NCBI RefSeq assembly: GCF_055900595.2
Contig: NZ_CM148325.1
Length of the DNA stretch: 64,000 nucleotides
Strand: one strand, 5' to 3'
Of this stretch, positions 17,881 to 60,496 are shown in pieces; the stretch's first letter is position 1, and each line of letters starts with the position of its first letter. The notes under the pieces were generated by a model. It ran no database searches, had not been told where the DNA came from, and worked only from the letters and a program-made list of their open reading frames with translations. A program made the position numbers and the translations under genes.

Positions 17881-18332
17881 AATCAATCGAATATGTTAAT
17901 TATGTATAAATCATAGACCATTGGTAATTTTATTGTTAATTTATTGTGAAATATTTACGTAACACAATTATTACAATAAAAAGACATAGATAAAAAACCA
18001 GTGTTTTATTTAACAGAATCGCCTTATCAACTTTTTATAATACCAATTGATTAGAGTAGCCAATTTGTTGCTATTTTACATAACATATTTTTATCAAAGT
18101 TAATTGATTGTTGCCTTTATGAGCATCGCCGTAAGACCGCCATGTTATTGTTTCATTTGTAATAATCACCAATAAGTATCGATGAGAGAGATATCGCTTA
18201 ACAGAGGCGACTGTGTCTGCATGAACACAGGCACTTTCGTCTGATAAACGAAAAATGAGCGATTTTTGCAAGTTAGTTTTTCTATAGCCGGGTACGCTGA
18301 GCGCCTCGCTTGATTACAATGAGGTTGCTGCC

Positions 18333-19277: not shown

Positions 19278-19356
19278 TTTTCTATACAGCCCTGTGTAAA
19301 ATATTGCTAATCAGTGCCCGGGGTTGATTTTTATTCCTCACGGTGATATTTAAATC

Positions 19357-19779
19357 ATGACCCCATCTCAGCTCTCTTTTAATACTCTTCCTGTCAATGC
19401 AACATGCACTTCAGAGATAACAGTAAACACACAAAAATTCTCTGACATCCTCTACTCAGTGGGGTATTCCCTAAAGGATCTGGCTTATCTGAGCAGATGT
19501 CTTGCATCATTACACCCGACACTCGCCAAAAACATTTATGAAACGGAAAATCTCAGCGATCAAAAATTACTTTATATAGATTGCCGTAGTACAAATGAAA
19601 TCAAGATAAATATCTTTTTTGGTCAGCAACGAGAAGGATTAATTGAAATTAGTTCTGACACAGTCATTTTTTCGATACTGTCTTCATTGATTGACTCAGC
19701 TATTTCTGAACATCGACATCAAATCACCATTAACGATTCAAATAATTCTGAACTATTTTATGAGGATTATACTGATTAA
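19357..19779 (+). CDS. hypothetical small acidic protein (140 aa)
   Basis: ORF 80 bp downstream of the previous ORF on the same strand; AT-rich; acidic C-terminus; no recognisable motif. Confidence 0.45.
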   Translation: MTPSQLSFNTLPVNATCTSEITVNTQKFSDILYSVGYSLKDLAYLSRCLASLHPTLAKNIYETENLSDQKLLYIDCRSTNEIKINIFFGQQREGLIEISSDTVIFSILSSLIDSAISEHRHQITINDSNNSELFYEDYTD

Positions 19780-20321
19780 ATCCACTCTGTGCGAACCTGT
19801 CCTGCATTTATGCCAGAAGTATTAGAATCTTTGATTAACGTTACTCGTACTGGTAGCACCTTCATGTGCCTCTCTTTTTTACGAACAATCAAAAGAACTA
19901 ACAAAGGGCATAATTCGTATAAATCATTAACCATTTGTTATATTCAACATTTTTTTACATTAAGCAGAGATGAATTGCAGTGAAATTCAAGTTAAATTTT
20001 ACAAAATGTATTACTCATGGCTAAAAAATCTCCCCAAAATGCAAATTAGAAGTTGATCACAATTATCTCAATACATCAAATAAAGTTAATTTTAAAAATT
20101 TAACATTCATGACATTAGTTGACATAACACGCTGAATTAAAATGAGAATTTAAAAACACACTTTAAACAATCATTTCCCGAAAGACATTTTGAAAATAGA
20201 TCAATTGCAACATTACGGTCAGATAAAGACACTCCTCTGATATTAAACCTGTGCCGTTATGAACGGCCATAAATACGACGTGTGTAACTTAATTTACTCT
20301 CTGTCTTACAAAGGATTACCC

Positions 20322-20771
20322 ATGAAGAAAGCAACACTTGTGATTGGCGTTATTGGCGCGGACTGCCATGCAGTAGGCAATAAAGTTCTGGACCGCGTTT
20401 TTAGCAACCATGACTTCAGAGTCATTAATCTGGGCGTAATGGTCAGCCAGGACGAATATATTGATGCTGCCATTGAAACTGGCGCTGACGCGATTGTCGT
20501 CTCCTCTATCTATGGGCATGGCGATATCGATTGTCTGGGCATGCGCGAACGCTGCATCGAGCGTGGGCTGGGTAACATCCTGCTCTATGTGGGCGGTAAC
20601 CTGGTGGTCGGAAAACATGACTTCGCTGACGTGGAAACCAAGTTCAAAGAGATGGGATTTGATCGCGTCTTTTCCCCAAGTCATGACTTAGAAGATGTTT
20701 GTCAGCTGATGGCCCACGATATCAACCAACGTCATGACGTTGATACTCGCATTCTTGAAGAGGCAATCTGA
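20322..20771 (+). CDS. glmS: glutamate mutase sigma (S) subunit, B12-binding
   Basis: [24 protein letters not shown]... aligns with the clostridial GlmS/MutS B12-binding subunit (DxHxxG-type motif in [10 protein letters not shown]); ORF track begins 21 codons earlier. Confidence 0.85.
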
Positions 20772-22159
20772 TGCAAATCGTCTCTGTCGATATTGGATCG
20801 ACGTGGACCAAAGCAGCCCTCTTCACCCGGGAGGGGGACGCGTTAACGTTGGTTAACCACGTTCTGACCCCAACCACCACCCATCATCTGGCGAAGGGGT
20901 TTTTCTCCAGCCTGGACCAGGTGTTAAACGTAGATGATGCCCTCCCCCTGTTAAACAGTGGTGAGGTTGCATTGAAGTATTCCTCCTCTGCCAAAGGTGG
21001 GCTGGCGGTTGCCGCAATGGGATTAGTGCCTTCTATCACTCTGGAAACCGCGAAAGTAACCGCTCACTCTGCGGGTGCTAAAATTGCGCAATATTACGCC
21101 TACAAGCTGAACCGCCGTGATATCCAGGCACTGGAAGAAACGCAGCCCGATATTCTCTTGTTCACCGGCGGCACCGACGGCGGAGAAGAAAGCTACGGAC
21201 TGAATAACGCCCGTGTGCTGGCAGAATCCAAACTCGACTGCGCCATTATTTATGCCGGAAACCGGGATATTCAGGACAAGGTGCAGGAGATCCTCGGGCA
21301 TAAAGACCTGACCATCGTCGACAACGTTCTGCCCGATCTTGACCATCCGAACCCTTTAGCTGCACGCCAGGCTATCTGCGACATATTCCTTAAACGCATC
21401 GTTAAAGGGAAAGGGCTGGATGTCATTGTTGATAAAACAGGCGAAGAACCAATGCCGACACCATGGACGGTCTTTGAACTGGTTAAGGCAATCAGTAACG
21501 TCGATCACAGCTGGAAAGAGTTCATGCTGATCGACATGGGCGGCGCAACCACCGATGTCTATTCCGCCTGTGCCAACACGCTCTCGCCCGACACTGTTTT
21601 ACATGGCGTACCGGAACCCTTCGTAAAACGGACGGTGGAAGGCGATCTGGGAATGCGCGTCTCGGCAATGGTGGTTGGTGAAAGTGCGAAAGAGTTAGTC
21701 AGTGTGAATTTTGCTCAGCAACCCGCACAGTTGGACGCTTTTTATCATTACCTCCGTCATCTAGTCGCTCATCCCGACTACTTACCCGCGAATGCAGATG
21801 AAAAATATTTCGATACCGTCCTGGCCGGACTGTGTGTGGGTTATGCCACCGAAAGACATGCGGGCACCAAAAAAGAGGTCTGCACCTGCGTCGGCAATGT
21901 CGATTTACAGATGGGACGTGACCTGACAACCGTGCGTAAAGTCGTGGGTTCCGGCGGATGGCTCTCGCGTGCCAGTCAGTTCGATATGCATCGCTGGTTG
22001 AAATACCGCGAGTTAAACGACGACGGTAAACGCATTCTCTTACCGACCGAATTTGAATATTACCGCGATTCCCGGGGGCTATTACCACTGCTGGCAAACG
22101 TCGCCAGAGTCGATCCGCTGGCCGCCGCGCGCACCAGTATTCAATGCTTAACCCTATAA
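20771..22159 (+). CDS. glmL: glutamate mutase-associated protein GlmL/MutL
   Basis: 462 aa ORF between the S and E subunit genes, start overlapping the glmS stop; same position and size as clostridial glmL. Confidence 0.75.
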   Translation: MQIVSVDIGSTWTKAALFTREGDALTLVNHVLTPTTTHHLAKGFFSSLDQVLNVDDALPLLNSGEVALKYSSSAKGGLAVAAMGLVPSITLETAKVTAHSAGAKIAQYYAYKLNRRDIQALEETQPDILLFTGGTDGGEESYGLNNARVLAESKLDCAIIYAGNRDIQDKVQEILGHKDLTIVDNVLPDLDHPNPLAARQAICDIFLKRIVKGKGLDVIVDKTGEEPMPTPWTVFELVKAISNVDHSWKEFMLIDMGGATTDVYSACANTLSPDTVLHGVPEPFVKRTVEGDLGMRVSAMVVGESAKELVSVNFAQQPAQLDAFYHYLRHLVAHPDYLPANADEKYFDTVLAGLCVGYATERHAGTKKEVCTCVGNVDLQMGRDLTTVRKVVGSGGWLSRASQFDMHRWLKYRELNDDGKRILLPTEFEYYRDSRGLLPLLANVARVDPLAAARTSIQCLTL

Positions 22160-22177
22160 CAATTAAGGCTGCAATCA

Positions 22178-23623
22178 ATGGAACTTCGAAATAAGAAATT
22201 AACCCATGACGAATTCATGACCGAGCGGCAACAGGTATTGAAAACCTGGGAAACCGGCAAGGATGTTGAAAACTTTGAAGATGGCGTTAAATACCAACAA
22301 ACCATTCCTGAGCATAAACGCTTCTCTCTTGCCCTGCTGAAAGCAGACAAGGAAGGTAAAACCCTTAGCCAACCGCGCGCAGGCGTGGCGCTGATGGACG
22401 AACACATCGAACTACTGAAAACACTACAAGAAGAGTGCGATCTGCTGCCGAGCACTATCGATGCATATACCCGTCTGAATCGGTACGAAGAAGCGGCTGT
22501 AGGGATTAAAAAATCCATCGAAGCCAGAACCTCTAAACTGAACGGTTTACCGGTAGTTAACCACGGCGTCGCAGCTTGCCGTCGCCTCACCGAAACTCTG
22601 CAAAAACCGCTACAGATCCGCCACGGCACGCCAGATGCGCGTCTGCTGGCTGAAATCTCGATGGCCAGCGGCTTTACCAGTTATGAAGGCGGCGGCATTT
22701 CCTACAATATTCCGTATGCCAAGCGCGTAACGCTGGAAAAATCGATCCGCGACTGGCAGTACTGCGATCGTTTAATGGGGATGTACGAAGAACACGGGAT
22801 CCGCATCAACCCCGAACCGTTTGGCCCACTAACGGGTACGCTGATCCCGCCGTTTATCTCGCACTCTATCGCAATAATCGAAGGCTTGCTGGCACTGGAA
22901 CAGGGTGTGAAGTCTATCACCGTTGGTTATGGTCAGGTCGGTAGCCTGACGCAGGATGTTGCGGCGATCCAGTCTCTGCGGGAACTTGCACACGAATACT
23001 TTCAGAGCTATGGCTATACCGACTACGAATTAAGTACCGTGTTTCACCAGTGGATGGGCGGCTTTCCGGAAGACGAATCGAAAGCGTTCGCCATTATCTC
23101 CTGGGGTGCTGCCGTCGCGGGGATGTCTGGTGCTACCAAAGTCATCACCAAAAGTCCGCACGAAGCCTGGGGCATCCCGACTGCTGCTGCCAACATTCAG
23201 GGGCTAAAAGCCTCCCGCCAGATGCTCAACATGGTCAACGAGCAGAAATTCCCGCCGTGCCCGGCGGTTGAACTAGAAATTGAACTGATTAAGAGCGAGG
23301 TTCGCGCGGTACTGAACAAAGTGTTCGAACTGGGTAATGGTGATATTGCGCGCGGTACGGTGCTGGCATTTGAAGCGGGCGTACTGGATGTGCCGTTTGC
23401 GCCAGCCGCCTGCAACGCAGGCAAAATTCTTCCGGTCCGTGACAACACTGGCGCGATTCGCGTACTGGAGGCCGGAGCCGTTCCATTGCCAAAAGATATT
23501 CTCGACCTCCACCACGATTACGTTGCTGAACGCGCGCGCTTTGAAGGACGCCAACCGACATTCCAGATGGTTGTAGATGACATCAATGCTGTATCCCACA
23601 GTAAATTAATAGGAAGACCATAA
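22178..23623 (+). CDS. glmE: glutamate mutase epsilon (E) subunit
   Basis: 481 aa ORF, size and position matching clostridial GlmE; flanked by glmS/glmL and methylaspartase. Confidence 0.85.
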   Translation: MELRNKKLTHDEFMTERQQVLKTWETGKDVENFEDGVKYQQTIPEHKRFSLALLKADKEGKTLSQPRAGVALMDEHIELLKTLQEECDLLPSTIDAYTRLNRYEEAAVGIKKSIEARTSKLNGLPVVNHGVAACRRLTETLQKPLQIRHGTPDARLLAEISMASGFTSYEGGGISYNIPYAKRVTLEKSIRDWQYCDRLMGMYEEHGIRINPEPFGPLTGTLIPPFISHSIAIIEGLLALEQGVKSITVGYGQVGSLTQDVAAIQSLRELAHEYFQSYGYTDYELSTVFHQWMGGFPEDESKAFAIISWGAAVAGMSGATKVITKSPHEAWGIPTAAANIQGLKASRQMLNMVNEQKFPPCPAVELEIELIKSEVRAVLNKVFELGNGDIARGTVLAFEAGVLDVPFAPAACNAGKILPVRDNTGAIRVLEAGAVPLPKDILDLHHDYVAERARFEGRQPTFQMVVDDINAVSHSKLIGRP

Positions 23624-24864
23624 TGAAAATAAAACAGGCCCTTTTTACCGCTGGCTACTCCTCATTCTATTTCGATGATCAGCAGGCGATAAAAAACGGA
23701 GCGGGTCACGACGGTTTTTTTTATACCGGGGAGCCAGTAACACAGGGGTTTAACGCCGTACGTCAGGCCGGGGAGTGCGTTTCGGTTCAGTTGATTCTGG
23801 AAAACGGTGCGGTCGCCGTAGGCGACTGTGCTGCCGTACAGTATTCCGGGGCAGGTGGTCGCGATCCACTGTTCCTCGCAGAGCACTTTATTCCGTTCCT
23901 CAACGACCATATCAAGCCATTACTGGTAGGCCGCGATGTGGATGCTTTCCTGCCGAATGCCCGTTTCTTCGACAAATTGCGTATTGACGGCAACTTGCTA
24001 CATACCGCCGTGCGCTACGGATTATCACAGGCGCTGCTTGATGCTACCGCGCTGGCAACCGGCCGTCTGAAAACTGAAGTGGTCTGTGATGAATGGCAGT
24101 TGCCACGCGTGGCGGAATCCATTCCATTATTTGGTCAGAGCGGCGACGATCGATATATCGCTGTCGATAAGATGATCCTTAAGGGCATCGACGTGCTGCC
24201 CCATGCGCTGATTAATAACGTCGAAGAGAAACTGGGCTTTAAAGGTGAAAAACTGCGCGAATATGTCCGCTGGCTGTCGGATCGCATTCTGAGCAAGCGC
24301 ACCAGCGCACGCTACCACCCTACCCTGCACATCGATGTATACGGCACTATTGGTCTGATCTTCGATATGGATCCGCTTCGCTGTGCGCAATACATCGCCA
24401 GTCTGGAAAAAGAGGCGCAAGGCCTGCCGCTCTACATTGAGGGGCCGGTCGATGCCGGTAACAAGCCCGATCAAATCCGCCTGCTGACCGCGATTACCAA
24501 AGAGCTGACGCGCCTCGGTTCCGGCGTGAAAATCGTGGCCGATGAATGGTGTAACACCTACCAGGATATTGTTGATTTCACTGATGCCGCCAGTTGCCAC
24601 ATGGTGCAAATCAAAACCCCGGATCTGGGCAGTATTCACAACATCGTCGATGCAGTTCTTTATTGCAACAGCCACAGCATGGAAGCGTACCAGGGCGGCA
24701 CCTGCAATGAAACTGATGTCAGTGCCCGCACCTGTGTCCACGTCGCCCTTGCTGCTCGCCCCATGCGTATGCTGGTAAAACCAGGGATGGGCTTTGACGA
24801 AGGCCTCGATATCGTCTTCAACGAAATGAATCGTACTATCGCGCTGTTGCAGGCTAAGGATTAA
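23623..24864 (+). CDS. mal: 3-methylaspartate ammonia-lyase (methylaspartase)
   Basis: 413 aa enolase-superfamily-like ORF; start overlaps the glmE stop (TAATG). Confidence 0.85.
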   Translation: MKIKQALFTAGYSSFYFDDQQAIKNGAGHDGFFYTGEPVTQGFNAVRQAGECVSVQLILENGAVAVGDCAAVQYSGAGGRDPLFLAEHFIPFLNDHIKPLLVGRDVDAFLPNARFFDKLRIDGNLLHTAVRYGLSQALLDATALATGRLKTEVVCDEWQLPRVAESIPLFGQSGDDRYIAVDKMILKGIDVLPHALINNVEEKLGFKGEKLREYVRWLSDRILSKRTSARYHPTLHIDVYGTIGLIFDMDPLRCAQYIASLEKEAQGLPLYIEGPVDAGNKPDQIRLLTAITKELTRLGSGVKIVADEWCNTYQDIVDFTDAASCHMVQIKTPDLGSIHNIVDAVLYCNSHSMEAYQGGTCNETDVSARTCVHVALAARPMRMLVKPGMGFDEGLDIVFNEMNRTIALLQAKD

Positions 24865-24867
24865 CAA

Positions 24868-26238
24868 ATGGCTCGTTCTTTTAAAGTCTTATCGCCAACG
24901 GCAATCCTCGGGTATGGATTCCCGGAAGAGAGCTTCCGCAAAGCGATGGCAGAATCGCCCGATCTGATCGCCGTTGATGCAGGCTCTTCCGATCCTGGCC
25001 CCCACTACCTCGGGGCGGGCAAACCGTTTACCGATCGCGCAGGGGTCAAGCGCGATCTACGCTATATGATCACCGCAGGCGTGCAAAATAATATACCGGT
25101 AGTGATCGGAACGGCCGGCGGTTCTGGTGCCGCTCCACACCTGGAGTGGTGCCGAGAAATAATTCATGAGATTGCCCGGGAAGAGCACCTCGCGTTCTCG
25201 ATGGCGCTGATCCCGGCAGACGTTGACAAAGCCATCGTCCACCAGGCGCTGGATAACGGCAAAATCACGGCGCTGGATTTTGTCCCGCCGTTAACCCACG
25301 ACGCGATTGACGAAAGTACGTATATCGTCGCGCAAATGGGCATCGAACCCTTCCAGCAGGCGCTGAAAGAAGGCGCGCAAGTGGTGCTGGGCGGGCGCGC
25401 TTACGACCCGGCCTGCTTTGCTGCGCTACCGATCATGCAAGGCTTTGATGAAGGTCTGGCGCTGCATTGTGGGAAAATCCTTGAATGCGCGGCAATCGCC
25501 GCAACGCCCGGCTCAGGCTCTGACTGTGCGATGGGCATCATTGATGACAACGGCTTTACGCTGAAGACATTTAATCCGAAGCGTAAATTTACCGAAACGT
25601 CAGCGGCTGCACACACACTGTATGAGAAATCCGATCCCTACTTTCTGCCAGGACCTGGCGGCGTGCTAAACCTGAAAGGTTGCACATTTAAAGCGATCAA
25701 TGATGGCGAAGTTTACGTCAGCGGTTCTAAGCATGAAGAAACGCCCTATGCCCTGAAACTGGAAGGTGCGCGGCGGGTGGGTTTCCGCTGTTTGACCATC
25801 GCCGGAACGCGCGACCCGATCATGATCGCCGGGATCGATAACATCATCGATGAAGTCAAAACCAGCGTTTCGCGTAATCTGTCCTTAGACGATGACAGCA
25901 TTCGCATCAATTTCCACCTGTACGGCAAAAACGGGGTGATGGGCGACCATGAACCGATGCAAACTGCCGGGCATGAGCTGGGGATTGTCCTTGATGTAGT
26001 TGCACCGACCCAGGATATTGCCAATAGCGTTTGCTCGCTGGTGCGCTCTACCATGCTGCACTACGGCTATGAAAACCGCATCGCTACCGCAGGCAACCTG
26101 GCGTTCCCGTTCTCCCCTTCTGATATCCAGGGCGGGCCGGTATACGAATTTTCCATATATCACCTGATTGAAGCCAACGACGCTCTGCGTTTTGATTTCC
26201 ATATTGAACAGGTGACGCCAGAAGGAGTTCAGGCATGA
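24868..26238 (+). CDS. uncharacterised protein, possibly DUF1446 (AtuA-like) family
   Basis: 456 aa ORF 3 nt after mal; the family assignment is from memory of the DUF1446/DUF4387 gene pairing and is unverified. Confidence 0.55.
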   Translation: MARSFKVLSPTAILGYGFPEESFRKAMAESPDLIAVDAGSSDPGPHYLGAGKPFTDRAGVKRDLRYMITAGVQNNIPVVIGTAGGSGAAPHLEWCREIIHEIAREEHLAFSMALIPADVDKAIVHQALDNGKITALDFVPPLTHDAIDESTYIVAQMGIEPFQQALKEGAQVVLGGRAYDPACFAALPIMQGFDEGLALHCGKILECAAIAATPGSGSDCAMGIIDDNGFTLKTFNPKRKFTETSAAAHTLYEKSDPYFLPGPGGVLNLKGCTFKAINDGEVYVSGSKHEETPYALKLEGARRVGFRCLTIAGTRDPIMIAGIDNIIDEVKTSVSRNLSLDDDSIRINFHLYGKNGVMGDHEPMQTAGHELGIVLDVVAPTQDIANSVCSLVRSTMLHYGYENRIATAGNLAFPFSPSDIQGGPVYEFSIYHLIEANDALRFDFHIEQVTPEGVQA

Positions 26239-26552
26239 AACAGTCAATTGTCTCACTGGCGCAAGTCATTCGTTCGAAAAATGCCGGACCTTACGAACTG
26301 GTTTTAGATATTTTATTTAAAACCAAAGAAAACTATGAGCGAGTAAAATCATCAGGGCAATTAACCCCAGAACTGATTGCGCGCTTATATCATGTTGAAC
26401 CTGACTTTATTCATCGTATTGTCTGGTTTGATCCTTCTAACGCAGTAAAAATTGTCATGCCACGAGATATTATCTCCGGGAATGTAGGTGACAATGATGT
26501 CTATGGCGCACAGCAACATGCACCTTTATTAAATATGAGTTTCGATTTGTAA
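26235..26552 (+). CDS. uncharacterised small protein, possibly DUF4387 family
   Basis: 105 aa ORF whose ATG overlaps the upstream stop (ATGA); contains an RSKNAGP-like segment I associate with DUF4387. Confidence 0.5.
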   Translation: MKQSIVSLAQVIRSKNAGPYELVLDILFKTKENYERVKSSGQLTPELIARLYHVEPDFIHRIVWFDPSNAVKIVMPRDIISGNVGDNDVYGAQQHAPLLNMSFDL

Positions 26553-26712
26553 AAATCCGAACACTTTTAGCCAACTGACATCCCGTCACTTATTGCAGCT
26601 CAACACTTCAGCTATTTGTAAGGTTGTTATAGCAGGTAGATGCCTGAATCTCTATTCAGGCATCCACTTCTCCTGATTCTGATTTATCGCCGTGCACCTG
26701 ATGGAGGAAAAA

Positions 26713-27993
26713 ATGAAGAAAATAAGTTTAACCACGATGATTCTTTTGGCGCTGGTACTTGGAATGATTATCGGCGTAGTGCTCAATAACACTGCTTCAC
26801 CGGAAACAGCAAAACTCTATGCGCAAGAAATATCGATATTCACGACGATTTTCTTACGACTGATAAAAATGATTATCGCTCCGTTAGTGGTCTCTACCCT
26901 GGTGGTAGGTATTGCTAAAATGGGCGATGCCAAAGCCCTTGGTCGTATTTTTTCTAAAACACTCTTTTTATTTATTTGCGCCTCATTGCTGTCAATTGCC
27001 TTAGGCTTGATAACGGTAAATTTCTTCATGCCAGGCACAGGAATTAATTTTGTTGCACACGGTGCCGAAACCACCGGAGTGGTCGCGTCAGAACCCTTTA
27101 CACTAAAAGTATTTATTTCGCATGCTTTCCCCACCAGCATTGTCGATGCCATGGCGCACAATGAAATTTTGCAAATCGTGGTGTTCTCAATTTTCCTCGG
27201 CTGTAGCCTGACGGCGATTGGTGAGAAAGGCAGCGCCATCGTTCACGCCTTAGATTCGCTGGCACATGCCATGTTAAAGCTCACTGGCTACGTCATGCTC
27301 TTCGCTCCCCTGACCGTATTCGCCGCTATTTCAGCATTGATTGCTGAACGAGGACTGGCAGTTATGGTGAGCGCCGGGATCTTTATGGGTGAATTTTATT
27401 TCACCATGTTATTACTTTGGGTGCTGCTTATCGGTCTGGCCATCGTTTATGTCGGCCCCTGCATCAGACGCCTGACCCGCGCCCTTTCTGAACCCGCCCT
27501 GCTGGCATTTACCACATCCAGTTCTGAAGCTGCTTTTCCGGGAACGCTTGAAAAACTGGAGCAATTTGGCGTTTCCCCCAAAATTGCCAGCTTTGTCTTA
27601 CCCATTGGCTACTCATTTAATCTCGTTGGATCAATGGCCTACTGCTCCTTCGCCACAGTTTTCATCGCCCAGGCCTGCAATATCCATTTATCCATCGGTG
27701 AGCAAATCACCATGCTGTTGATCCTGATGTTGACCTCGAAAGGAATGGCTGGCGTACCACGCGCCTCAATGGTGGTTATCGCCGCCACGCTCAACCAGTT
27801 CAATATTCCGGAAGCGGGGCTGATCTTGCTGATGGGCGTTGATCCGTTCCTTGATATGGGGCGTTCCGCGACAAACGTCATGAGCAACGCAATGGGCGCT
27901 GCGATGGTGAGTCGGTGGGAAGGCGAACATTTCGGCGAGGGTTGTCGGGGTAAAGCATTAAAACCCAATGAATCGAACGTTGCTCTGCCCTGA
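26713..27993 (+). CDS. dicarboxylate/amino acid:cation symporter (GltP-like)
   Basis: Start placed at MKKISLT with GGAGG 5 nt upstream; polytopic; conserved DAACS segments (IKMIIAPLVVSTLVVGIA, SSSEAAFP, PIGYSFNLVGS) resemble GltP. Confidence 0.8.
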   Translation: MKKISLTTMILLALVLGMIIGVVLNNTASPETAKLYAQEISIFTTIFLRLIKMIIAPLVVSTLVVGIAKMGDAKALGRIFSKTLFLFICASLLSIALGLITVNFFMPGTGINFVAHGAETTGVVASEPFTLKVFISHAFPTSIVDAMAHNEILQIVVFSIFLGCSLTAIGEKGSAIVHALDSLAHAMLKLTGYVMLFAPLTVFAAISALIAERGLAVMVSAGIFMGEFYFTMLLLWVLLIGLAIVYVGPCIRRLTRALSEPALLAFTTSSSEAAFPGTLEKLEQFGVSPKIASFVLPIGYSFNLVGSMAYCSFATVFIAQACNIHLSIGEQITMLLILMLTSKGMAGVPRASMVVIAATLNQFNIPEAGLILLMGVDPFLDMGRSATNVMSNAMGAAMVSRWEGEHFGEGCRGKALKPNESNVALP

Positions 27994-28100
27994 GGGGGAT
28001 CTTAAGAAATCAGAAGCCAATGACTACGCATTTTTATAAGCCGGATCATGAAGTTAGACGGCAATTAAGTAACACTAACGTTTAAGGTGAAAAGTGAAAT

Positions 28101-29753
28101 ATGTCCAAACCATTTATCTGGCAAGAACCGTTTCTACAAAATAAAGACGGTACAGAATATACATTAATTAGCGATCAACATATTACAGTAACGGAATTAG
28201 ACGGCGAAGAAGTAATAAAAATCGCTCCTGAAGCATTAACGCTGCTTGCCCGGCAGGCATTTTATGAAGCCTCTTTTTTCTTACGTTCCGCTCATTTGCA
28301 ACAGGTCGCCAGCATTCTTAACGATCCGCAGGCCAGCAGTAATGATAAATACGTTGCGTTGCAGTTATTACGTAATGCTGAAGTCTCAGCAAAAGGGGTA
28401 TTACCCAACTGTCAGGATACCGGCACCGCAACTATTGTTGCCAGTAAAGGGCAACAGATATGGACGGGAGGTAACGACGCTGAAGCCTTAAGCAAAGGCA
28501 TTTACAGTACTTTCCAGGAAAATAATCTGCGCTTTTCACAAAATGCGCCGCTGGATATGTATACCGAAGTCAATACGCAAACCAATCTTCCGGCGCAGAT
28601 TGATATCAGCGCTGTCGCTGGTAATGAGTACCATTTTCTCTGTGTTAATAAAGGGGGCGGCTCCGCCAATAAAGCTGCACTTTATCAGGAAACCAAATCC
28701 TTATTGCAACCAGAAAAACTGACCGCATTTTTAATCGACAAAATGAAATCGTTGGGCACGGCCGCCTGCCCGCCCTACCACATCGCCTTTGTCGTCGGAG
28801 GGCTTTCAGCCGATCAAACCTTAAAAGTTGCCAAGCTGGCCTCTACGAAATATTACGACAATTTGCCCACCAGCGGAAACGAGCAGGGACAAGCATTCCG
28901 TGATATTGAGCTGGAAAAAGCGTTGCTCGAAGCCAGTCAGCAATTTGGTATTGGTGCGCAATTTGGGGGTAAATATTTCGCTCATGATATTCGCGTCATT
29001 CGTCTGCCGCGTCACGGTGGCTCCTGCCCGATAGCTATGGCGCTCTCCTGTTCTGCCGATCGCAATATCAAAGCCAAAATTAACAAGCACGGTATCTGGC
29101 TGGAAAAACTCGAACACAATCCGGGGCAATATATTCCAGCCTCATTGCGGGAAGAAAATCACTCGCTACATGTACACCTGGATCTAAACCGTCCGTTGCG
29201 TGACGTGATGCAGGATCTCGCCAGATTACCGGTAGGTACCCGCGTGTCGTTAAGTGGTCCCATCGTAGTGGCGCGCGATATCGCCCACGCAAAAATAAAA
29301 GCGCGGCTGGATAGCGGCGAATCGATGCCGGATTACCTGAAGCATCATATTGTCTATTACGCTGGCCCGGCGAAAACACCGGAGAACATGGCCTGCGGTT
29401 CACTGGGTCCAACCACGGGCGGTCGAATGGACGGTTATGTCGAAACCTTCCAGGCGGCTGGCGGCAGTCTGGTAATGTTATCGAAAGGTAACCGCAGCCA
29501 GCAGGTCACCGATGCCTGTCACAAACATGGCGGCTTCAATCTGGGAAGTATTGGCGGTGCAGCTGCGTTACTGGCGCAAGAATATGTCAAAAGTCTGCGT
29601 TGCCTGGAATACCCGGAGCTGGGTATGGAGGCGGTGTGGATGATGGAAGTGGAAAATCTGCCCGCATTCATCCTGGTTGATGATAAAGGCAATAATTTCT
29701 TTAGCCAGTTTGAGCAGCAACACCGCTGCGCCAGTTGCCCTGCGGGACATTAA
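28101..29753 (+). CDS. fumD: class I fumarate hydratase paralog, probable mesaconase
   Basis: 550 aa ORF alignable along its length to remembered E. coli FumA ([34 protein letters not shown]); the fumD name follows a published O157:H7 mesaconase description, recalled from memory. Confidence 0.8.
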
Positions 29754-29762
29754 GGAAAATGA

Positions 29763-30365
29763 ATGGAAGCGCGAATTTCAACTGAACGGCATGTGCAGCG
29801 CCAGCAGAAATTGAAGGAACAGGTCGATACGCGCGTCGCGGCGGCGATAGAGAAAAAAGGGATCTTGATTGTTTTCACCGGCAACGGCAAAGGGAAATCC
29901 ACTGCCGCGTTTGGTACTGTAACGCGCGCGGTGGGCCATGGCAAAACGGTGGGGGTTGCGCAGTACATCAAGGGGCAATGGGACAACGGCGAATACAATC
30001 TTCTCCAGCCGCTGGGAGTGGAGTTTCATATTATGGGAACCGGTTTTACCTGGGAGACACAGAACCGGCAAGCGGATATCGATGCGGCGAAAGAGGTCTG
30101 GTCGGAAAGCAAACGGATGCTGGCTGACAAGCGTTACGACTTAGTGGTGCTTGATGAGCTCACCTATATGCTGGCTTACCATTATCTGGATACAGAAGAA
30201 GTGATCACTTCTCTGCAAAACCGTCCGGCACAACAAAGTGTCATTGTCACCGGACGCGGTTGCCACAGTCAGATATTAAAAATGGCGGATACGGTAAGTG
30301 AAATCCGCCCCGTCAAACATGCTTTTGATAACGGCATTCAGGCCCAGCCGGGGATCGACTGGTAA
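29763..30365 (+). CDS. cob(I)yrinic acid a,c-diamide / cobalamin adenosyltransferase (BtuR/CobA-like)
   Basis: 200 aa ORF with GILIVFTGNGKGKSTAAFG P-loop and overall similarity to remembered E. coli BtuR; a paralog located in the B12-dependent operon. Confidence 0.85.
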   Translation: MEARISTERHVQRQQKLKEQVDTRVAAAIEKKGILIVFTGNGKGKSTAAFGTVTRAVGHGKTVGVAQYIKGQWDNGEYNLLQPLGVEFHIMGTGFTWETQNRQADIDAAKEVWSESKRMLADKRYDLVVLDELTYMLAYHYLDTEEVITSLQNRPAQQSVIVTGRGCHSQILKMADTVSEIRPVKHAFDNGIQAQPGIDW

Positions 30366-30368
30366 TAA

Positions 30369-30396
30369 CTGCGCCTGGCATCCCGCCAGGCGCAGG
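30369..30396. terminator. bidirectional hairpin between the BtuR-like gene and the convergent LysR gene
   Basis: ctgcgcctggc-atccc-gccaggcgcag perfect inverted repeat followed by gtttt; occupies the 33 bp gap between the two stop codons. Confidence 0.55.
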
Positions 30397-30398
30397 TT

Positions 30399-31304
30399 TT
30401 ACATCTCCTGCGGTACGACCGATTTCGCCAGCAACCATTCACGAAATTGCTGCAAGTGCGGAGAGTCAGACTTCTCTTCCTGCCACGTCATAATAAAACG
30501 ATTACCGGTACGAATAGGCACATCACAGGGAATCACCATATCGCCACTATCCAAATCATGTTGAATAGCGAACCGTGGTAACAGCGCCACGCCGAGATTA
30601 GAGCGCACGGCGGCAATCAGCATTGAAAGCAAATCGAAACGTGGTCCGTTATTGACCAGCGGACTGCTAACGCCAGATAAAGCAAACCACTCTTCCCAGC
30701 CAGTAATACGGGTGCTTTGATGCAGAAGTGGTAACTCAGTAAGCAGTTCTGCCACTGACAGTTTTTGATCGGACATTGCAAGCAAACTGCCGCTGCATAC
30801 CGGCAAAATCTCCTCTTCAAAGAGATATTCTACTTCCGCCCAGGGCGCGCAAAAATTTTCGCGCATAATGACAGCATCGTACTCCCGATTAAGAAAATCG
30901 CCGTTATTAGCTAAAGAATGAATATTAACAATAATATCGGGATGTAACTTTGTGAATTCATGTAAATTTGGGATTAACCAGTGGGTACTAAAAGTAGGAT
31001 TAACGGCAAGTTCAATAACCTGAACCGTAGGCTGCCATGTCATAATCGTATTGGTATCGCGCTCCAGCTTATTTAATGTTTCTTTTACTATCCCCAGGTA
31101 ATACTTCCCTGCATCATTAAGAAAAATGCGTTTTTTAGAGTGTGAAAATAACGGAGTATGTAAAAATTCCTCCAGCGCACTTACTTGTCTGAATACAGCA
31201 CTTTGGGTTAACGCTAACTCCTCTGCCGCTCTGGTATAACTTTCATGTCGTGCGACGACCTCAAAAGTCACCAGCAGCTCCGTTTTAGGTATTTTTCCTC
31301 GCAT
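30399..31304 (-). CDS. LysR-family transcriptional regulator
   Basis: N-terminal HTH (FEVVARHESYTRAAEELALTQSAVFRQVSALEE) and LysR substrate-binding body; start placed at MRGKIPK (ORF track starts 10 codons earlier). Confidence 0.8.
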   Translation of the reverse strand: MRGKIPKTELLVTFEVVARHESYTRAAEELALTQSAVFRQVSALEEFLHTPLFSHSKKRIFLNDAGKYYLGIVKETLNKLERDTNTIMTWQPTVQVIELAVNPTFSTHWLIPNLHEFTKLHPDIIVNIHSLANNGDFLNREYDAVIMRENFCAPWAEVEYLFEEEILPVCSGSLLAMSDQKLSVAELLTELPLLHQSTRITGWEEWFALSGVSSPLVNNGPRFDLLSMLIAAVRSNLGVALLPRFAIQHDLDSGDMVIPCDVPIRTGNRFIMTWQEEKSDSPHLQQFREWLLAKSVVPQEM

Positions 31305-31893
31305 AATGCCGTCCGTGAAAAAATAACAATTCAAAAATTATTTTATAAAAAACAGTAGCACTAATGAATATCATAATTCAAATAAACAAACCAGTCAGCT
31401 ATATGTCTAACCAGGAAAATAAAGTGACAATAATCCTAAAACAGGAATTTCACCTCAGTTATCCGCATGCAATACTTTAAAGCTATTATTGCAAGAATAT
31501 TATTCATATACATGAATATACTCTAAATAAGTCAAGTTGCAGGAAGGGAACAAATAATGAATATCCAGAAGCTTACATAAGTAAGTGACCTGGGTGAGCG
31601 AACATCGATGCAGCACATGCAACTTGAATTATGACAAGTATACAATGATAAATTTATATACCCTATGTTATATATTATCTATGTCCGGTTAAATTGAATG
31701 AGTCATAGCCTTAAAAGACTTCACAAAAGATAATTCCTCTTTAACAATAAGCCAGATTTACCACTTGTAAAACTTGCTATCGCTGCATACACTACGCGCG
31801 TTTTCTTTCCCTTTTGCTGGCTGCTGACCGGAAAGACAAAATTACCCTCGCAATACAGGGGGTTGATTAACGTCTATATTTCAGGACAGCGTT

Positions 31894-33291
31894 ATGCATC
31901 ATCTTTCAAGGCTTGATAAAGCCTTTCTGCGCAAAGGGATCCAACTTTCCCGCGCCAACAATATTGTTTCATTATGTCGTCCATCAGGAGCCAGTGCCCG
32001 CGTACTGCTGCCGGACGAACTGCCGCTGGAAGAAAAAGCAGTGACACAACTGCTTGATTTTGCAGATGTGAAGCTACCAGACCACCCAGGTTATGTGCGC
32101 CAGACGTGCGCGACGCCAGATTTTCATCCCGGCAATGGCGTCCCCGTTGGCGCGGTGGTGGCCTCAACGCCGGATTTAGTCATTCCCGCCGCCATCGGCA
32201 CCGATATTTCTTGTGGCATGCGGCTGCTGACGACCGGATTAACACTTGAGCAAGCCGAAGCGCATAAAGACGTCATCGCTCAGCGGTTAACGCAAGTGCT
32301 ACTGCAAAATGAGCGCGATGTTCCGTTATCCGCACAGGCGTTCACCGCGCTTTTTGATGGCGGACCGGCAGATTGCATGTCGGCCTTGCCATCAGCAGGT
32401 CTCTGGACACGTACAAATATCCCCCGGATGACGCAAGAGATTGACCGCTGCATTGGGCTTAAAGAGCATAACAGTCATTCGCGTTATGCCCCACCCGCCC
32501 TGCTGGCAACGGACCGCGCATTACTCCGCGATCCTTGTCTTGGTACGCCGGGTTCAGGTAATCATTTTATTGAACTTCAGGTCGTTGATAACGTGGTTGA
32601 TCGCCATGTGGCCTGGCAACAAGGGCTGAAAACAGGCGATATTGTGGTGATGATCCACAGTGGATCACGAGATGTTGGCTTTTACGTCGGAAGACGCTGG
32701 ATGGATCGCGCCCGTGCTGAATGGCCCACCGGACATAAACATCCACAAAGCGGGTTATATGGTCTGGCAGGCGGACTGGCGGAGGAATATCTACAAGCGA
32801 TAGGAATGGCGGCGCGTTACGCGTGGTTAAATCGCGTGACAATTGCCGAAATGGTGCGCGTATGTCTTGCCAATCTCTTTCATCAGGACAATTCGCATCT
32901 GGTGGTGGATGTGCCACATAACATCATCCTTCGCGAGCATGAAATGAATATTCATCGCAAAGGCGCAACACCGGCACGAGTGGGCAATCTGGCGTTAATC
33001 CCCGGTTCAATGGGCGATTATTCGTGGCTTGCGGTTGGTTGCGGCAACCCGGAGTGGCTGTGGTCATGCAGTCACGGAGCAGGACGCAGCCAGCGTCGGC
33101 AGGCCATGCGCTCACGCGCGACTGAAGAGTCAACGCTGCCGTGGCAATGCGTCACATTGCGCGAAGAACGACGTCTTGAAGAAGCGCCAGCGGCTTATAA
33201 AGATATTGGTCCGGTTATCGAAGCTCAACAAGAAGCCGGATTAATTCAGCCAGCGGTCAGATTTCGACCGTGGTTAACGTTTAAAGCATAA
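31894..33291 (+). CDS. RtcB-family RNA ligase paralog
   Basis: 465 aa ORF with RtcB hallmarks (GTDISCGMRLL, GSGNHFIELQ, HSGSRDVG, CSHGAGRS); N-terminus longer than remembered E. coli RtcB, so the start is uncertain. Confidence 0.75.
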   Translation: MHHLSRLDKAFLRKGIQLSRANNIVSLCRPSGASARVLLPDELPLEEKAVTQLLDFADVKLPDHPGYVRQTCATPDFHPGNGVPVGAVVASTPDLVIPAAIGTDISCGMRLLTTGLTLEQAEAHKDVIAQRLTQVLLQNERDVPLSAQAFTALFDGGPADCMSALPSAGLWTRTNIPRMTQEIDRCIGLKEHNSHSRYAPPALLATDRALLRDPCLGTPGSGNHFIELQVVDNVVDRHVAWQQGLKTGDIVVMIHSGSRDVGFYVGRRWMDRARAEWPTGHKHPQSGLYGLAGGLAEEYLQAIGMAARYAWLNRVTIAEMVRVCLANLFHQDNSHLVVDVPHNIILREHEMNIHRKGATPARVGNLALIPGSMGDYSWLAVGCGNPEWLWSCSHGAGRSQRRQAMRSRATEESTLPWQCVTLREERRLEEAPAAYKDIGPVIEAQQEAGLIQPAVRFRPWLTFKA

Positions 33292-33388
33292 AAAAGGCCA
33301 TCATACGATGGCCAACCATGTCGAAACCGACAGCCCTTCGCCATTCCTGTAGAGGGAAGCGGCGAGGGCTATTTCTTATTACAGATAT
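33292..33388 (-). ncRNA. sdhX: candidate SdhX sRNA (sucD 3'UTR plus terminator)
   Basis: About 75 nt 3'UTR after the sucD stop ending in a ggccatcgtatgatggcc hairpin plus U-tract on the minus strand; SdhX is known to derive from the sucD 3'UTR, but I cannot verify the sequence from memory. Confidence 0.4.
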
Positions 33389-34258
33389 TTATTTCAGAAC
33401 AGTTTTCAGTGCTTCACCGATATCCGCCAGGCTGCGAACGGTTTTCACGCCTGCGGCTTCCAGAGCAGCGAATTTCTCATCCGCAGTCCCTTTCCCACCG
33501 GCAATGATGGCACCCGCGTGGCCCATACGTTTGCCTTTCGGCGCAGTTACACCAGCGATGTAACCTACAACTGGCTTGGTAACGTGCTCTTTGATGTACG
33601 CAGCCGCTTCTTCTTCAGCGCTACCGCCGATCTCACCGATCATCACGATCGCTTCGGTCTGCGGATCTTTTTCGAACATTTCGAGGATGTCGATAAAGTT
33701 AGAGCCAGGGATCGGGTCGCCGCCGATACCAACACAGGTCGACTGACCGAAACCGTAATCCGTGGTCTGTTTAACCGCTTCATAGGTCAGTGTACCGGAA
33801 CGGGAAACGATACCCACTTTACCCGGTTTGTGAATGTGACCAGGCTGGATGCCGATTTTACATTCACCCGGAGTGATAACGCCCGGGCAGTTCGGGCCGA
33901 TCATACGAACGCCTGCTTCATCCAGTTTCACTTTCACGGTCAGCATATCCAGCGTCGGGATGCCTTCAGTGATGGTGATAATCAGTTTGATGCCTGCGTC
34001 GATGGCTTCCAGAATGGAGTCTTTGCAGAACGGTGCTGGTACGTAGATAACAGAAGCGGTAGCGCCGGTGGCAGCAACGGCTTCACGCACGGTGTTGAAC
34101 ACCGGCAGACCGAGGTGGGTAGTACCGCCTTTACCAGGGGTTACGCCGCCAACCATTTTAGTGCCGTATGCAATGGCCTGTTCAGAGTGGAAAGTCCCCT
34201 GGCTACCAGTAAAGCCCTGGCAGATAACCTTGGTGTTTTTATCAATTAAAATGGACAT
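33389..34258 (-). CDS. sucD: succinyl-CoA synthetase alpha subunit
   Basis: 289 aa ORF matching remembered SucD ([33 protein letters not shown]...). Confidence 0.95.
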
Positions 34259-35424
34259 TATTTCCCCTCCACTGCGGCAACAACCTGCTGAGCTGCATCC
34301 GTCAGACCTTTTGCTGCAATAATATTCAGGCCGCTGTCAGCCAGTTTCTTCGCGCCGAGTTCGGCGTTGTTACCTTCCAGACGTACCACGACCGGTACGT
34401 TAACACCCACTTCCGCTACCGCGCCGATAATACCGTCAGCGATCAGGTCGCAACGAACGATACCACCGAAGATGTTAACCAGAACGGCTTTCACTTTGTC
34501 GTCAGAGAGGATGATTTTGAACGCTTCGGTTACACGTTCTTTGGTTGCGCCACCGCCAACGTCCAGGAAGTTAGCTGGTTCGCCGCCGTGCAGTTTAACG
34601 ATGTCCATCGTACCCATCGCCAGACCTGCGCCGTTAACCATACAACCGATGTTACCATCCAGCGCAACGTAGTTCAGTTCCCACTGTGCAGCCTGTGCTT
34701 CACGTGGATCTTCCTGCGACTGGTCACGCATTTCGCGCAGATCAGGCTGGCGGAACAGTGCGTTGCCATCAGCGCCCAGTTTACCGTCGAGGCAGATCAG
34801 ATCGCCCTGTTTGGTAATAACCAACGGGTTAATTTCGATAAGAGCAAGGTCGCGCTCAAGGAAAATGGTCGCCAGACCCATGAAAATTTTGGTGAACTGT
34901 TGAACCAGTTTACCTTCCAGACCCAGTTTGAACGCCAGCTCACGACCCTGATACGGCATCGGGCCAGTCAGCGGATCAAGCGCAACTTTGTGGATCAGGT
35001 GCGGAGTTTCTTCCGCCACTTTTTCGATTTCCACGCCGCCTTCAGTGGAGGCCATAAAGACCACGCGACGGGAACTACGGTCTACAACGGCACCAAGATA
35101 CAGCTCTTTAGCGATATCGGTCGCTGCTTCAACCAGAATCTGGTTAACCGGTTGGCCATTAGCATCTGTTTGATACGTTACCAGACGCTTGCCCAGCCAG
35201 TTTTCTGCAAAAGCACGGATGTCTTCTTTGCTGTTTACAACTTTCACACCGCCCGCTTTACCGCGGCCACCAGCGTGAACCTGACATTTCACTACCCACG
35301 GACCGGCACCGATTTTTGAAGCGGCTTCTTCTGCTTCGCGCGGAGTAGTACAGGCATAACCCACCGGTGCTGGTAAGCCATAGCGGGCAAACAGTTGTTT
35401 TGCCTGATATTCATGTAAGTTCAT
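34258..35424 (-). CDS. sucC: succinyl-CoA synthetase beta subunit
   Basis: 388 aa ORF matching remembered SucC ([20 protein letters not shown]...). Confidence 0.95.
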
Positions 35425-35507
35425 GTGTTCTGTCCATCCTTCAGTAATCGTTATCTTTTAAACCGTAGACCGAATATTTCGTATCGCTTCCGGGTATTGT
35501 CGGTCAC

Positions 35508-35676
35508 CCGTAGGCCTGATAAGACGCGCAAGCGTCGCATCAGGCATCGCTTGTCGGATGCGGCGCGAGCGCCTTATCCGACCTACATTGATGGTCCCCG
35601 TAGGCCTGATAAGACGCGTCAGCGTCGCATCAGGCTTCAATTGCCGGAGAAAGCGATAATGCCTCATCCGGTCTAC
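35508..35676. repeat. REP/BIME cluster in the sucB-sucC intergenic region
   Basis: Four imperfect palindromes of the gcctgataagacgcg...cgcatcaggc / gccggatgcggcg type. Confidence 0.6.
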
Positions 35677-35698
35677 AGTGCAGGTGAAACTTAAACTA

Positions 35699-36916
35699 CT
35701 ACACGTCCAGCAGCAGACGCGTCGGATCTTCCAGCAACTCTTTGATCGTTACCAGGAAGCCCACGGACTCGCGACCATCGATCAGACGGTGATCGTAGGA
35801 CAGCGCCAGGTACATCATCGGCAGGATCTCAACCTGACCATTCACTGCCATCGGACGATCTTTGATAGCGTGCATACCCAGAATTGCGCTCTGCGGCGGG
35901 TTGATGATAGGCGTAGACATCAGGGAACCGAACACACCACCGTTGGTGATGGTAAAGTTACCACCGGTCAGATCTTCAACCGTCAGCTTGCCGTCACGGC
36001 CTTTAACTGCCAGCTCTTTAATTTTCTTCTCGATGTCTGCCATGCCGAGGGTATCGACATCACGCAGAACCGGCGTCACCAGGCCGCGCGGCGTAGATAC
36101 CGCCATGCTGACGTCGAAATAGTTGTGGTAAACCACATCATCGCCGTCGATAGAAGCATTCACTTCCGGGTAACGTTTCAGGGCTTCAACCACCGCTTTC
36201 ACGTAGAAGGACATAAAGCCCAGACGGATGCCGTGACGTTTTTCAAACGCTTCACCATACTGCTTACGCAGATCCATAATCGGCTTCATGTTGACTTCGT
36301 TGAACGTGGTCAGCATGGCGGTGGAGTTTTTCGCTTCCAGCAGACGCTCTGCCACACGCTTACGCAGGCGAGTCATCGGAACACGTTTTTCGCTACGTGC
36401 AGCCAGAGCCGGTTGCGCCGCCGTAGTAGCTGCTGCCGGTGCAGACTCTTTCGCCGGGGCTTTCGCCAGATGTTTTTCCACATCTTCACGGGTCAGACGA
36501 CCACCTACACCGGTGCCTTTAATGGCGCTGGCATCAAGATTGTGTTCAGCCAAAAGGCGACGGATCGCCGGGCTTAAGGCATCGTTGTTTTGCTCTTCCA
36601 GAGACGCCTGTTGGCGTTGTGCCGGAGTTGACGCTTTCTCTTCAGCTTTAGCGCTGGTTTCTTTACCGGCGCTGTTGCCTTCACGCAGGCGACCAAGGAT
36701 CTGACGAGACGTTACGGTTGTACCTTCATCTTCCAGAACCGCATCCAGAATGCCGTCTGCTGATGCCGGTACTTCCAGTACCACTTTGTCAGTTTCGATT
36801 TCTACCAGCACTTCATCACGTACGACTGCGTCGCCGGGTTTTTTATGCCAGGTTGCGACGGTGGCATCGGCTACGGATTCAGGCAGGTCAGGGACCAGAA
36901 TATCTACGCTACTCAT
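35699..36916 (-). CDS. sucB: 2-oxoglutarate dehydrogenase E2 (dihydrolipoyl succinyltransferase)
   Basis: 405 aa ORF with lipoyl domain, Ala/Pro linker and catalytic domain (DHRLIDG). Confidence 0.95.
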
Positions 36917-59492: not shown

Positions 59493-59576
59493 TACTGCTC
59501 CTGAACGGTTTACAGGAGTAAGTGTAGACGGCAGTATTGAAAAAACGAAACGAATAAATGAATTCGGTAAAGAAAT

Positions 59577-60494: not shown

Positions 60495-60496
60495 AA

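Follow-up and report, generated by a model that had tools for sequence, protein, structure and literature searches.

We analysed a 64-kb window of an Escherichia coli chromosome (64,000 nt of contig NZ_CM148325.1, assembly GCF_055900595.2), in which the gene of an RtcB-family RNA ligase stands divergent from the gene of a LysR-type transcriptional regulator (LTTR). The two genes probably represent two unrelated modules lying side by side between sucD and cydA. One is the RtcB gene with a promoter and an RNA leader of its own, and the other is the LysR gene, which goes with the methylaspartate cluster on its far side. The window is the galK-to-kdpA part of the chromosome and shows 99.9-100% identity to strains Z0117EC0005 and AST85. 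The genes and the spacer between them are as follows.

30399..31304, minus strand: gene of a LysR-type (GcvA-like) regulator, 301 aa, ATG start
31305-31893: spacer between the LysR and RtcB genes, 589 bp, AT-rich, 31-36% G+C
31894..33291, plus strand: gene of an RtcB-family 3'-phosphate/5'-OH RNA ligase, 465 aa, long-form proteobacterial clade, PF01139

Both open reading frames (ORFs), their divergent orientation and the AT-rich spacer of about 590 bp (589 bp when counted from the ATG) are as described in the original prediction, which had been made from the letters of this DNA alone and had proposed that the LysR protein controls the ligase gene. Counted from a TTG, the LysR ORF would span 30399-31334 (minus strand, 311 aa). 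The ATG at 31302-31304 (MRGKIPKT...), which RefSeq uses and which is conserved in all orthologs across genera, is the more likely start.

A conserved leader and a predicted promoter upstream of RtcB

Variovorax, Burkholderia, Ralstonia, Chitinimonas, Undibacterium and Pseudomonas (Beta-/Gammaproteobacteria) have abundant homologs of the RtcB protein, 60-67% identical to it and 462-470 aa long, and all records of this long-form clade were proteobacterial. The following elements were located upstream of the RtcB gene in the window.

31765..31793, plus strand: predicted sigma-70 promoter of RtcB, with -35 TTGTAA (31765-31770), a 17-nt spacer and -10 TACACT (31788-31793)
31800..31893, plus strand: conserved 5' leader of the RtcB mRNA, about 95 nt, candidate cis-regulatory RNA (conservation, covariance model)
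31802-31810, plus strand: pyrimidine tract of the leader, UUUCUUUCC
31820-31826, plus strand: invariant GCUGCUG
31830-31837, plus strand: purine tract, GGAAAGAC
31844-31863, plus strand: hairpin S3
31871-31882, plus strand: 3' strand of helix S2, CGUCU..UUUC
31883-31886 and 31887-31890, plus strand: Shine-Dalgarno (SD) sequence AGGA and the CAGC that follows it

Eighty further loci of the clade were fetched by protein similarity alone and hence were unselected for the motif. An exact GCTGCTG was found within 170 nt of the start codon in 72 of the 76 metagenome loci with usable upstream sequence; the remaining four comprised two one-base variants of GCTGCTG, one truncated sequence and one locus without the motif. 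The gapped pattern TTCC-GCTGCTG-GGAARG had one match in each of 23 loci, always in the leader. A six-sequence seed gave the covariance model R1, and its 28 hits at E <= 0.2 gave the model R2. On 594 kb, R2 produced 88 hits at E <= 1, of which about 80 fell exactly at RtcB leaders on the gene strand and four were antisense images of leaders; every hit at E < 0.01 was a leader. Its only hits among 577 kb of control loci were the two RtcB leaders of E. coli and three weak ones, and the K-12 rtcBA-rtcR locus, which belonged to this control set, gave no hit. When window positions 18000-36000 and the leader position in 10 diverse loci were compared with Rfam 15 (4227 families) at E <= 1, the leader had no match, and our literature search found no paper linking rtcB to an RNA motif. 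The leader thus precedes nearly every RtcB of the clade and is an apparently uncatalogued, widely conserved element.

The CTTGT and the -10 hexamer of the promoter are invariant in the E. coli arrangements A, B and C described below, in a cryptic-clade Escherichia (locus L045) and in another genus (locus L057). Of 68 leaders, 65 have a TAnnnT hexamer at a distance of 13-26 nt on the upstream side of GCTGCTG, and 30 of these 65 have in addition a match of at least 4/6 to TTGACA at a spacing of 16-18 nt. The 115 bp upstream of the RtcB gene are 93-100% identical even to a relative with saturated synonymous sites (dS ~1.1), and the same layout recurs before the RtcB genes of the clade in Pseudomonas, Burkholderia, Ralstonia, Variovorax and Chitinivorax. 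These 115 bp thus hold a predicted sigma-70-type promoter and the leader of about 95 nt, both belonging to the clade itself. We infer that the promoter is used for RtcB and that the leader has on and off states.

At 31870-31872, in the leader and beside the 3' strand of S2, strain Z0117EC0005 has ATG (L001:17472-17474) where the window has ACG. Because of this one-base difference, the RefSeq coding sequence of RtcB in Z0117EC0005 begins 24 nt early (473 aa). The start at ATG 31894 is backed by other strains and by all homologs.

Predicted structure of the leader

In the minimum free energy (MFE) folds of single sequences, GCUGCUG found its pairing partner within the 16 nt that precede the AUG in 65 of 69 distinct leaders, and the folding energies of these 69 leaders gave a mean z of -3.4 against dinucleotide shuffles. 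The E. coli leader has an MFE of -28.1 kcal/mol (z = -2.2), with the GG of the SD sequence, the CAGC spacer and the AUG all paired. In the predicted fold, helix S1 joins GCUGCUG to CAGC(AGC), located between the SD sequence and the AUG, and encloses both the purine-tract helix S2 and the GC-rich hairpin S3. The partner of GCUGCUG is always beside the start codon, although the distance between the two strands varies from 60 to 130 nt.

Covariation was assessed in a 59-sequence alignment fitted to model R2. Cells of the alignment were paired in 89.6% of cases, compared with 74.2% in shuffles and 37-47% with slid partners, and double changes were found in 137 cells against 40 +/- 7 in shuffles. 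Compensatory changes occurred in 6/6 pairs of S2 and in 3/3 pairs of the inner helix of S3. In a plain MAFFT alignment of 38 leaders the stems were out of register and RNAalifold predicted no structure, so that the alignment from the seed and covariance model was used instead. Folded alone, the 5' part of the leader forms a hairpin, P1, in 63 of 69 leaders, with the pyrimidine and purine tracts paired and GCUGCUG in the loop. P1 and S2 use the same purine tract, and the predicted design is therefore switch-like.

The conserved element might instead act as DNA, its inverted repeat and GCTGCTG forming the operator of a widely conserved transcription factor just downstream of the -10. The arms of P1 (pyrimidine tract, about 14 bp, purine tract) are indeed an inverted repeat directly after the predicted -10, the invariance of GCTGCTG suggests sequence-specific recognition over mere pairing, and P1 has little statistical support from covariation. 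We nevertheless consider an operator rather unlikely, since S2 and S3 vary between lineages yet stay complementary (6/6 and 3/3 pairs double-changed), the partner of GCUGCUG keeps its place next to the start codon despite the variable distance, the folding energies lie well under those of the shuffles, and no regulator gene co-occurs with the clade.

The RtcB clade and known RtcB systems

The original prediction had pointed to the missing Rtc partners, and this observation holds: rtcA, rtcR, prfH and archease genes are annotated nowhere in the 64-kb window, and the sigma-54 promoter pattern TGGCAC-N5-TTGCW, with up to two mismatches, has no match in the spacer 31305-31893. The same pattern has 38 matches in the whole window, which is the chance expectation. 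The absence of partners had been taken as unusual for an RtcB gene; it is normal for this clade, in which even the most frequent neighbouring gene family is found at no more than 9 of the 87 loci. This maximum excludes the shadow ORFs from high-GC DNA that contaminated the families when neighbouring ORFs were clustered. Because no neighbour family recurs, a stand-alone RtcB is the rule for the clade and no oddity of the E. coli locus. A LysR-family ORF is found in the flanks of five of the 87 loci, never as the immediately adjacent gene, and the other 82 have no LysR-family neighbour. This count was made with an iterated hidden Markov model; phmmer with a single LysR query had missed known LysR neighbours.

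The neighbours differ from lineage to lineage. The RtcB gene follows nuoN and a methyltransferase gene in P. aeruginosa-like genomes, and is preceded by an NmrA-like gene in Burkholderia and by a FIST-domain gene in Variovorax. In Ralstonia a reverse-transcriptase gene is nearby, and at one Chitinivorax locus a gene of a KptA/Tpt1 RNA 2'-phosphotransferase lies directly downstream. Judged from these sequences, the clade is horizontally spread among proteobacteria, without a recurrent neighbouring gene.

Three known groups of RtcB proteins can be compared with the protein encoded here. The E. coli Rtc system (rtcB-rtcA, RtcR) belongs to the same family, PF01139, has the same six catalytic residues and presumably shares the ligation chemistry on 3'-P/2',3'>P and 5'-OH ends. 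It differs in having rtcA and the sigma-54 activator RtcR, where the gene described here has a predicted sigma-70 promoter and a structured leader. With no adjacent rtcA, no divergent rtcR and no sigma-54 (-24/-12) promoter upstream, the gene is not a member of an Rtc operon. The RtcB2-PrfH ribosome rescue and repair module (PMC9304027, PMC9223846) likewise provides a second RtcB paralog in some E. coli strains. The present protein, however, scores 169.4 bits on TIGR03073 'release_rtcB', against a cut-off of 271.8, and its gene has no adjacent prfH. The best matches among solved structures are the long-form RtcB proteins of archaea and Thermus (PH1602, TTHA1785; PDB 1uc2, 4dwq, 2epg), with E = 9e-43 to 6e-41. 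They are of similar length and align end to end (residues 48-468 against 30-476), but diverge around residues 120-215. A literature search on RtcB with LysR found nothing relevant.

The LysR gene and the methylaspartate cluster

To the left of the LysR gene, and convergent with it, lies the methylaspartate cluster glmS-glmL-glmE-mal-atuA-like-DUF4387-dctA-like-fumD-cobO. The LysR protein scores 221 bits on the NCBIfam GcvA subfamily model, under its cut-off of 288 bits. A survey of LysR orthologs with one genome per species returned 38 loci, of which 34 were full-length and from outside E. coli. In 33 of these 34 the ortholog, 80-93% identical, stands beside fumD in the same convergent orientation, and in 31 it is accompanied by cobO too; the exception is a Trabulsiella LysR copy with 68% identity. 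The loci of E. whittamii and Escherichia sp. E1V33 lack cobO and dctA and retain fumD. Outside Escherichia, the convergent order after the LysR ortholog is cobO-fumD-(gap)-dctA-like-DUF4387-atuA-like in all 31 full-length loci except the Trabulsiella copy. The orthologs with 80-88% identity come from Citrobacter, Salmonella enterica arizonae/diarizonae, Klebsiella oxytoca/grimontii/michiganensis, Enterobacter, Lelliottia, Pluralibacter, Buttiauxella and a Raoultella metagenome-assembled genome. Among the LysR loci outside E. coli, only that of the cryptic-clade Escherichia (L045, the left half of a split locus) has RtcB; in Citrobacter, a SumT-like methyltransferase gene occupies the position divergent to the LysR ortholog.

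Of 5426 complete E. coli genomes, 1119-1127 have the LysR gene (1119 of them a complete one) and 1122 have mal, while 289 have an intact RtcB of this clade. Because of the synteny across genera and the E. coli counts matching those of mal, we count the LysR gene as part of the methylaspartate cluster found in pathogenic enterobacteria. It would be the resident regulator of this B12-dependent cluster (glutamate to mesaconate to citramalate), as the synteny suggests.

The original prediction had held that convergence makes the LysR protein less likely to regulate the glm operon. The conserved convergent synteny contradicts this, as does the legend of Fig. 5 in Kronen & Berg 2015 (PMC4682846), where an LTTR is listed with GltP, FumD and CobA. 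That LTTR is the same gene as the LysR gene described here, the synteny of which our survey confirms. A text search of the main text of PMC4682846, with figures and supplements lying outside it, did not find the word RtcB. The literature search found no paper on an LTTR that binds or regulates the promoters of the methylaspartate cluster.

Within the cluster, the 5' untranslated region (UTR) of the symporter gene (26553-26712, between the DUF4387 and dctA-like symporter genes) is strongly conserved (L013-L044) in Citrobacter, Salmonella, Klebsiella, Enterobacter, Buttiauxella and Lelliottia, the E. coli copy being the most divergent. The structure predicted by RNAalifold has 28 pairs in three helices, with compensatory changes in 15 pairs, and the Rfam scan of the window had no match at 26553-26712. 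This UTR may be another leader absent from the catalogues, or else an element for processing or termination.

Arrangements of the locus in E. coli

At least four arrangements of the locus were found in E. coli.

Arrangement A (this window): LysR / RtcB < sucD
Arrangement B: as A, with mngB-mngA-mngR between RtcB and sucD
Arrangement C: LysR < hutH-hutG-hutI-hutD-permease-hutU / RtcB, with an 8.7-kb insert; 145 genomes
Arrangement D (O157:H7, among many others): LysR followed by the LysR-hutH spacer and two fragments of hutH, then RtcB remnants of 57 bp and 44 bp, then sucD
31305..31322: spacer sequence next to LysR that is shared with other arrangements, 18 bp (blastn against the EDL933, MRSN346647 and CUVET16-465 loci)
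31323..31778: AT-rich segment specific to A and B, 456 bp, in the place that the hut operon occupies in C

Since arrangement D holds the LysR-hutH spacer and hutH fragments, it derives from C. The 289 genomes with an intact RtcB consist of 144 with the 456-bp segment and 145 with hutU, so that the hut operon stands between LysR and RtcB in 145 of 289. Arrangements A and B together account for 144-150 genomes and have the 456-bp segment in common. This segment is a single-copy sequence in 150 of the 5426 genomes and carries no annotated feature. Among the fetched loci it had matches with E below 1e-10 only in E. coli loci of type A or B; three other matches, in L024 and L037, were short and weak. 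Six promoter-like hits were found across 31200-33450, which includes the segment, against 3.9 +/- 2.0 in shuffles, showing no excess. By blastn, all E. coli arrangements have in common only the 18 bp beside LysR and the 115 bp beside RtcB.

LysR and RtcB are 589 bp apart in the window; L045 has 1073 bp between them, and arrangement C has 8.8 kb. In L045 both of the hut-flanking spacers are fused and hut is gone. Arrangement C is found also in L057, a contig of another enterobacterial genus, with 89% (LysR) and 86% (RtcB) identity and a coding dS of ~1.1. The LysR and RtcB genes thus appear to have long been near neighbours, with the intervening DNA replaced repeatedly.

RtcB has been lost from ~74% of the E. 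coli genomes that bear the island. O157:H7 keeps LysR and the methylaspartate cluster, with only scars of hutH and RtcB left, and about 400 E. coli genomes retain just the 44-bp tail of RtcB. The scar of the O157:H7 type (EDL933 L009:14907-15572; MRSN346647 L008) is a mosaic, in which the RtcB remnants correspond to window positions 33018-33074 and 33248-33291. The hut operon (L048:5476-13217 in CUVET16-465; L057:1531-9250) comprises hutH, hutG, hutI, hutD, a cytosine-permease-like transporter gene and hutU, with hutU as the gene divergent from RtcB; no hutC repressor gene is annotated within or beside it.

These arrangements bear on the proposal that the LysR protein binds the spacer between the two genes and there acts as activator or repressor of the divergent RtcB gene on a small-molecule cue, which would place RNA ligation under the control of a metabolite. 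The two genes are divergent, they lie close together in A, B and L045 and flank hut in C and L057, and LTTRs can have several targets. We hold such control to be unlikely all the same. The layout had been called the classic one of a LysR regulator and its target, but the LysR gene travels with the glm cluster, hut intervenes in half of the RtcB-positive genomes, and the 589-bp spacer is unconserved. A short conserved control region between regulator and target was not found in the spacers of 589 bp, 1073 bp and 8.8 kb, which share 18 + 115 bp; the 115 bp comprise the predicted promoter and the leader that belong to the clade itself, and are present in bacteria without such a LysR. Nor are the two genes a co-inherited pair: ~830 E. 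coli genomes and 33 other species-level loci have LysR and lack RtcB, and a LysR-family neighbour accompanies RtcB in only five of 87 clade loci. Control of RtcB by LysR in this lineage is thus unsupported and could at best be a secondary, lineage-specific layer. Divergent orientation beside a LysR gene is no evidence of control where the pair sits in a rearranging region.

The RtcB protein

The protein matches Pfam PF01139 with E = 6.8e-95, residues 63-464 covering model positions 7-425 of 426. As the original prediction had noted, it is longer than the canonical protein (465 against 408 aa in K-12 RtcB); the two are 30% identical by BLASTP, the K-12 query being an exact match to an E. coli RtcB database entry. 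It is under the cut-off of every one of the four NCBIfam RtcB sub-family models. PRK09588 was dropped as a model of canonical E. coli RtcB, K-12-type RtcB itself scoring 173 bits against its 407-bit cut-off. Neither the RtcB nor the LysR protein was matched by PADLOC.

The catalytic residues were located by counting in the alignment to the PH1602 and TTHA1785 structures. D104, C107, H224, H255, H342 and H394 are equivalent to D95, C98, H203, H234, H329 and H404 of PhRtcB, respectively. Their codons in the window, all on the plus strand, are as follows (alignment to PhRtcB).

32203-32205: D104
32212-32214: C107
32563-32565: H224
32656-32658: H255
32917-32919: H342
33073-33075: H394 (GMP acceptor)

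All six residues are invariant across 33 sequences (32 clade members and K-12 RtcB). With the metal-binding and GMP-histidine residues all conserved, the reading of the protein as a pseudoenzyme, which the original prediction had left open, is not borne out. It is predicted to be a catalytically competent 3'-phosphate RNA ligase of the Mn/GTP type. The ratio of nonsynonymous to synonymous substitution rates (dN/dS) is 0.13-0.19 among the Escherichia alleles (dS 0.06-0.21) and 0.07-0.08 against an 86%-identical relative, and the length is constant at 465 aa; these values indicate that RtcB is under purifying selection. Canonical rtcB is present in 4857 of the 5426 complete E. coli genomes (~90% with rtcBA-rtcR). 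Because most genomes hold the canonical rtcBA-rtcR, the protein described here is probably a second RtcB.

That the E. coli gene is a decaying, silent and functionless horizontal acquisition, its adjacency to LysR a by-product of rearrangement, would agree with the frequent loss that left 57-bp and 44-bp scars, with the AT-rich flanking DNA, a kind usually silenced by H-NS, and with the rtcBA that most strains already carry, but is quite improbable for a gene of constant length with dN/dS this low, intact catalytic residues and a leader conserved at 93-100%.

A model for the RtcB module

In the model that we favour, the RtcB gene would have entered Escherichia together with its promoter and leader, in one self-contained cassette that lodged at the edge of the methylaspartate island. 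The leader most likely gates the translation of RtcB, its predicted fold holding the translation start closed until a signal alters it. In E. coli, an extended S1 would also cover the SD sequence and the AUG. The alternative 5' hairpin P1 would compete with S2 for the purine tract. In lineages with a U-rich tract after S2, attenuation of transcription is also possible.

Several points weigh against this model. With a model built from betaproteobacterial leaders, the leader of E. coli reaches no more than 14-19 bits (E 0.02-0.5), and the covariation counts come from a model-fitted alignment of related sequences. S1 hardly varies, and what speaks for it is conservation and energy rather than covariation. 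For P1 and S2, matched and mismatched partners barely differ (6.9 against 6.2 bp and 7.2 against 6.4 bp, respectively), because the arms are polypyrimidine and polypurine in every lineage; since this test separates weakly, P1 is put forward as a candidate state only. The E. coli promoter is a weak match to the consensus, 8/12 and below the scan threshold, so that we infer it by alignment. Finally, Escherichia, the cryptic clade and one other genus all have LysR linked to RtcB, whether or not hut lies in between, and this recurring linkage leaves room for some functional link between them.

The predicted leader resembles known SD-sequestering leaders (translational riboswitches, RNA thermometers and thrS-like autoregulatory operators) in that the ribosome-binding region is paired to a segment farther upstream and a second state is available through a competing 5' hairpin, here P1. 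It differs from the catalogued ones in having no match among the 4227 families of Rfam 15. To our knowledge, the control of the production of an RNA-repair ligase is understood only for the RtcR-controlled operon.

A tentative extension, which we regard as possible rather than likely, is that the leader represents a new class of RNA sensors, acting in cis and coupling the expression of a stand-alone RNA ligase directly to RNA damage, as an RNA-only counterpart of RtcR. Damage could act by two routes. An endoribonuclease might cut between the GCUGCUG strand and the start region and thereby free the ribosome-binding site; toxins of the MqsR type are reported to cleave GCU sites, of which GCUGCUG contains two. 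Alternatively, broken RNA ends, tRNA halves or RtcB itself might bind the leader and shift the balance between P1 and S1/S2. If so, leader and gene together would be a widespread, self-contained repair cassette across Beta- and Gammaproteobacteria. A leader that occludes the start site would offer, in GCUGCUG and its partner, an easily mutated handle toward the inducing signal and hence toward the natural substrates of the ligase.

Other features of the window

The genes sucDCBA lie to the right of RtcB, with sucD directly adjacent, and one further feature separates RtcB from sucD.

33296..33313, minus strand: terminator-like hairpin of sucD, between the RtcB stop codon and sucD (terminator scan)

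The sequence of this hairpin is kept in strains without RtcB. The mannosylglycerate genes mngR-mngA-mngB are absent from 33292-33388 in the window; in arrangement B they stand between RtcB and sucD (compare L007:10423-16129), and in K-12 they follow sucD. The interval between sucD and cydA is a variable region of several modules. At its other end, which is the island's left edge, cydA and glmS have two hypothetical genes between them at 18332-19778 (L001:3934-5380), coding for 315 and 141 aa and separated from glmS by a spacer of ~540 bp; both are also present in O157:H7.

Between sucC and sucB, at 35513-35673, two to three repetitive extragenic palindromic (REP)-type repeats match Rfam naRNA4 (RF02564; 78.8 and 50 bits), and the sucC-sucB spacer is ~180 bp longer than in several other strains. 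Near ybfA, at about 58600-61400 (L055:2486-5017), a small cluster combines hypothetical genes with a fragment of an IS630 transposase and an orphan immunity gene of contact-dependent inhibition, and pxpC is annotated as frameshifted in a near-identical strain.

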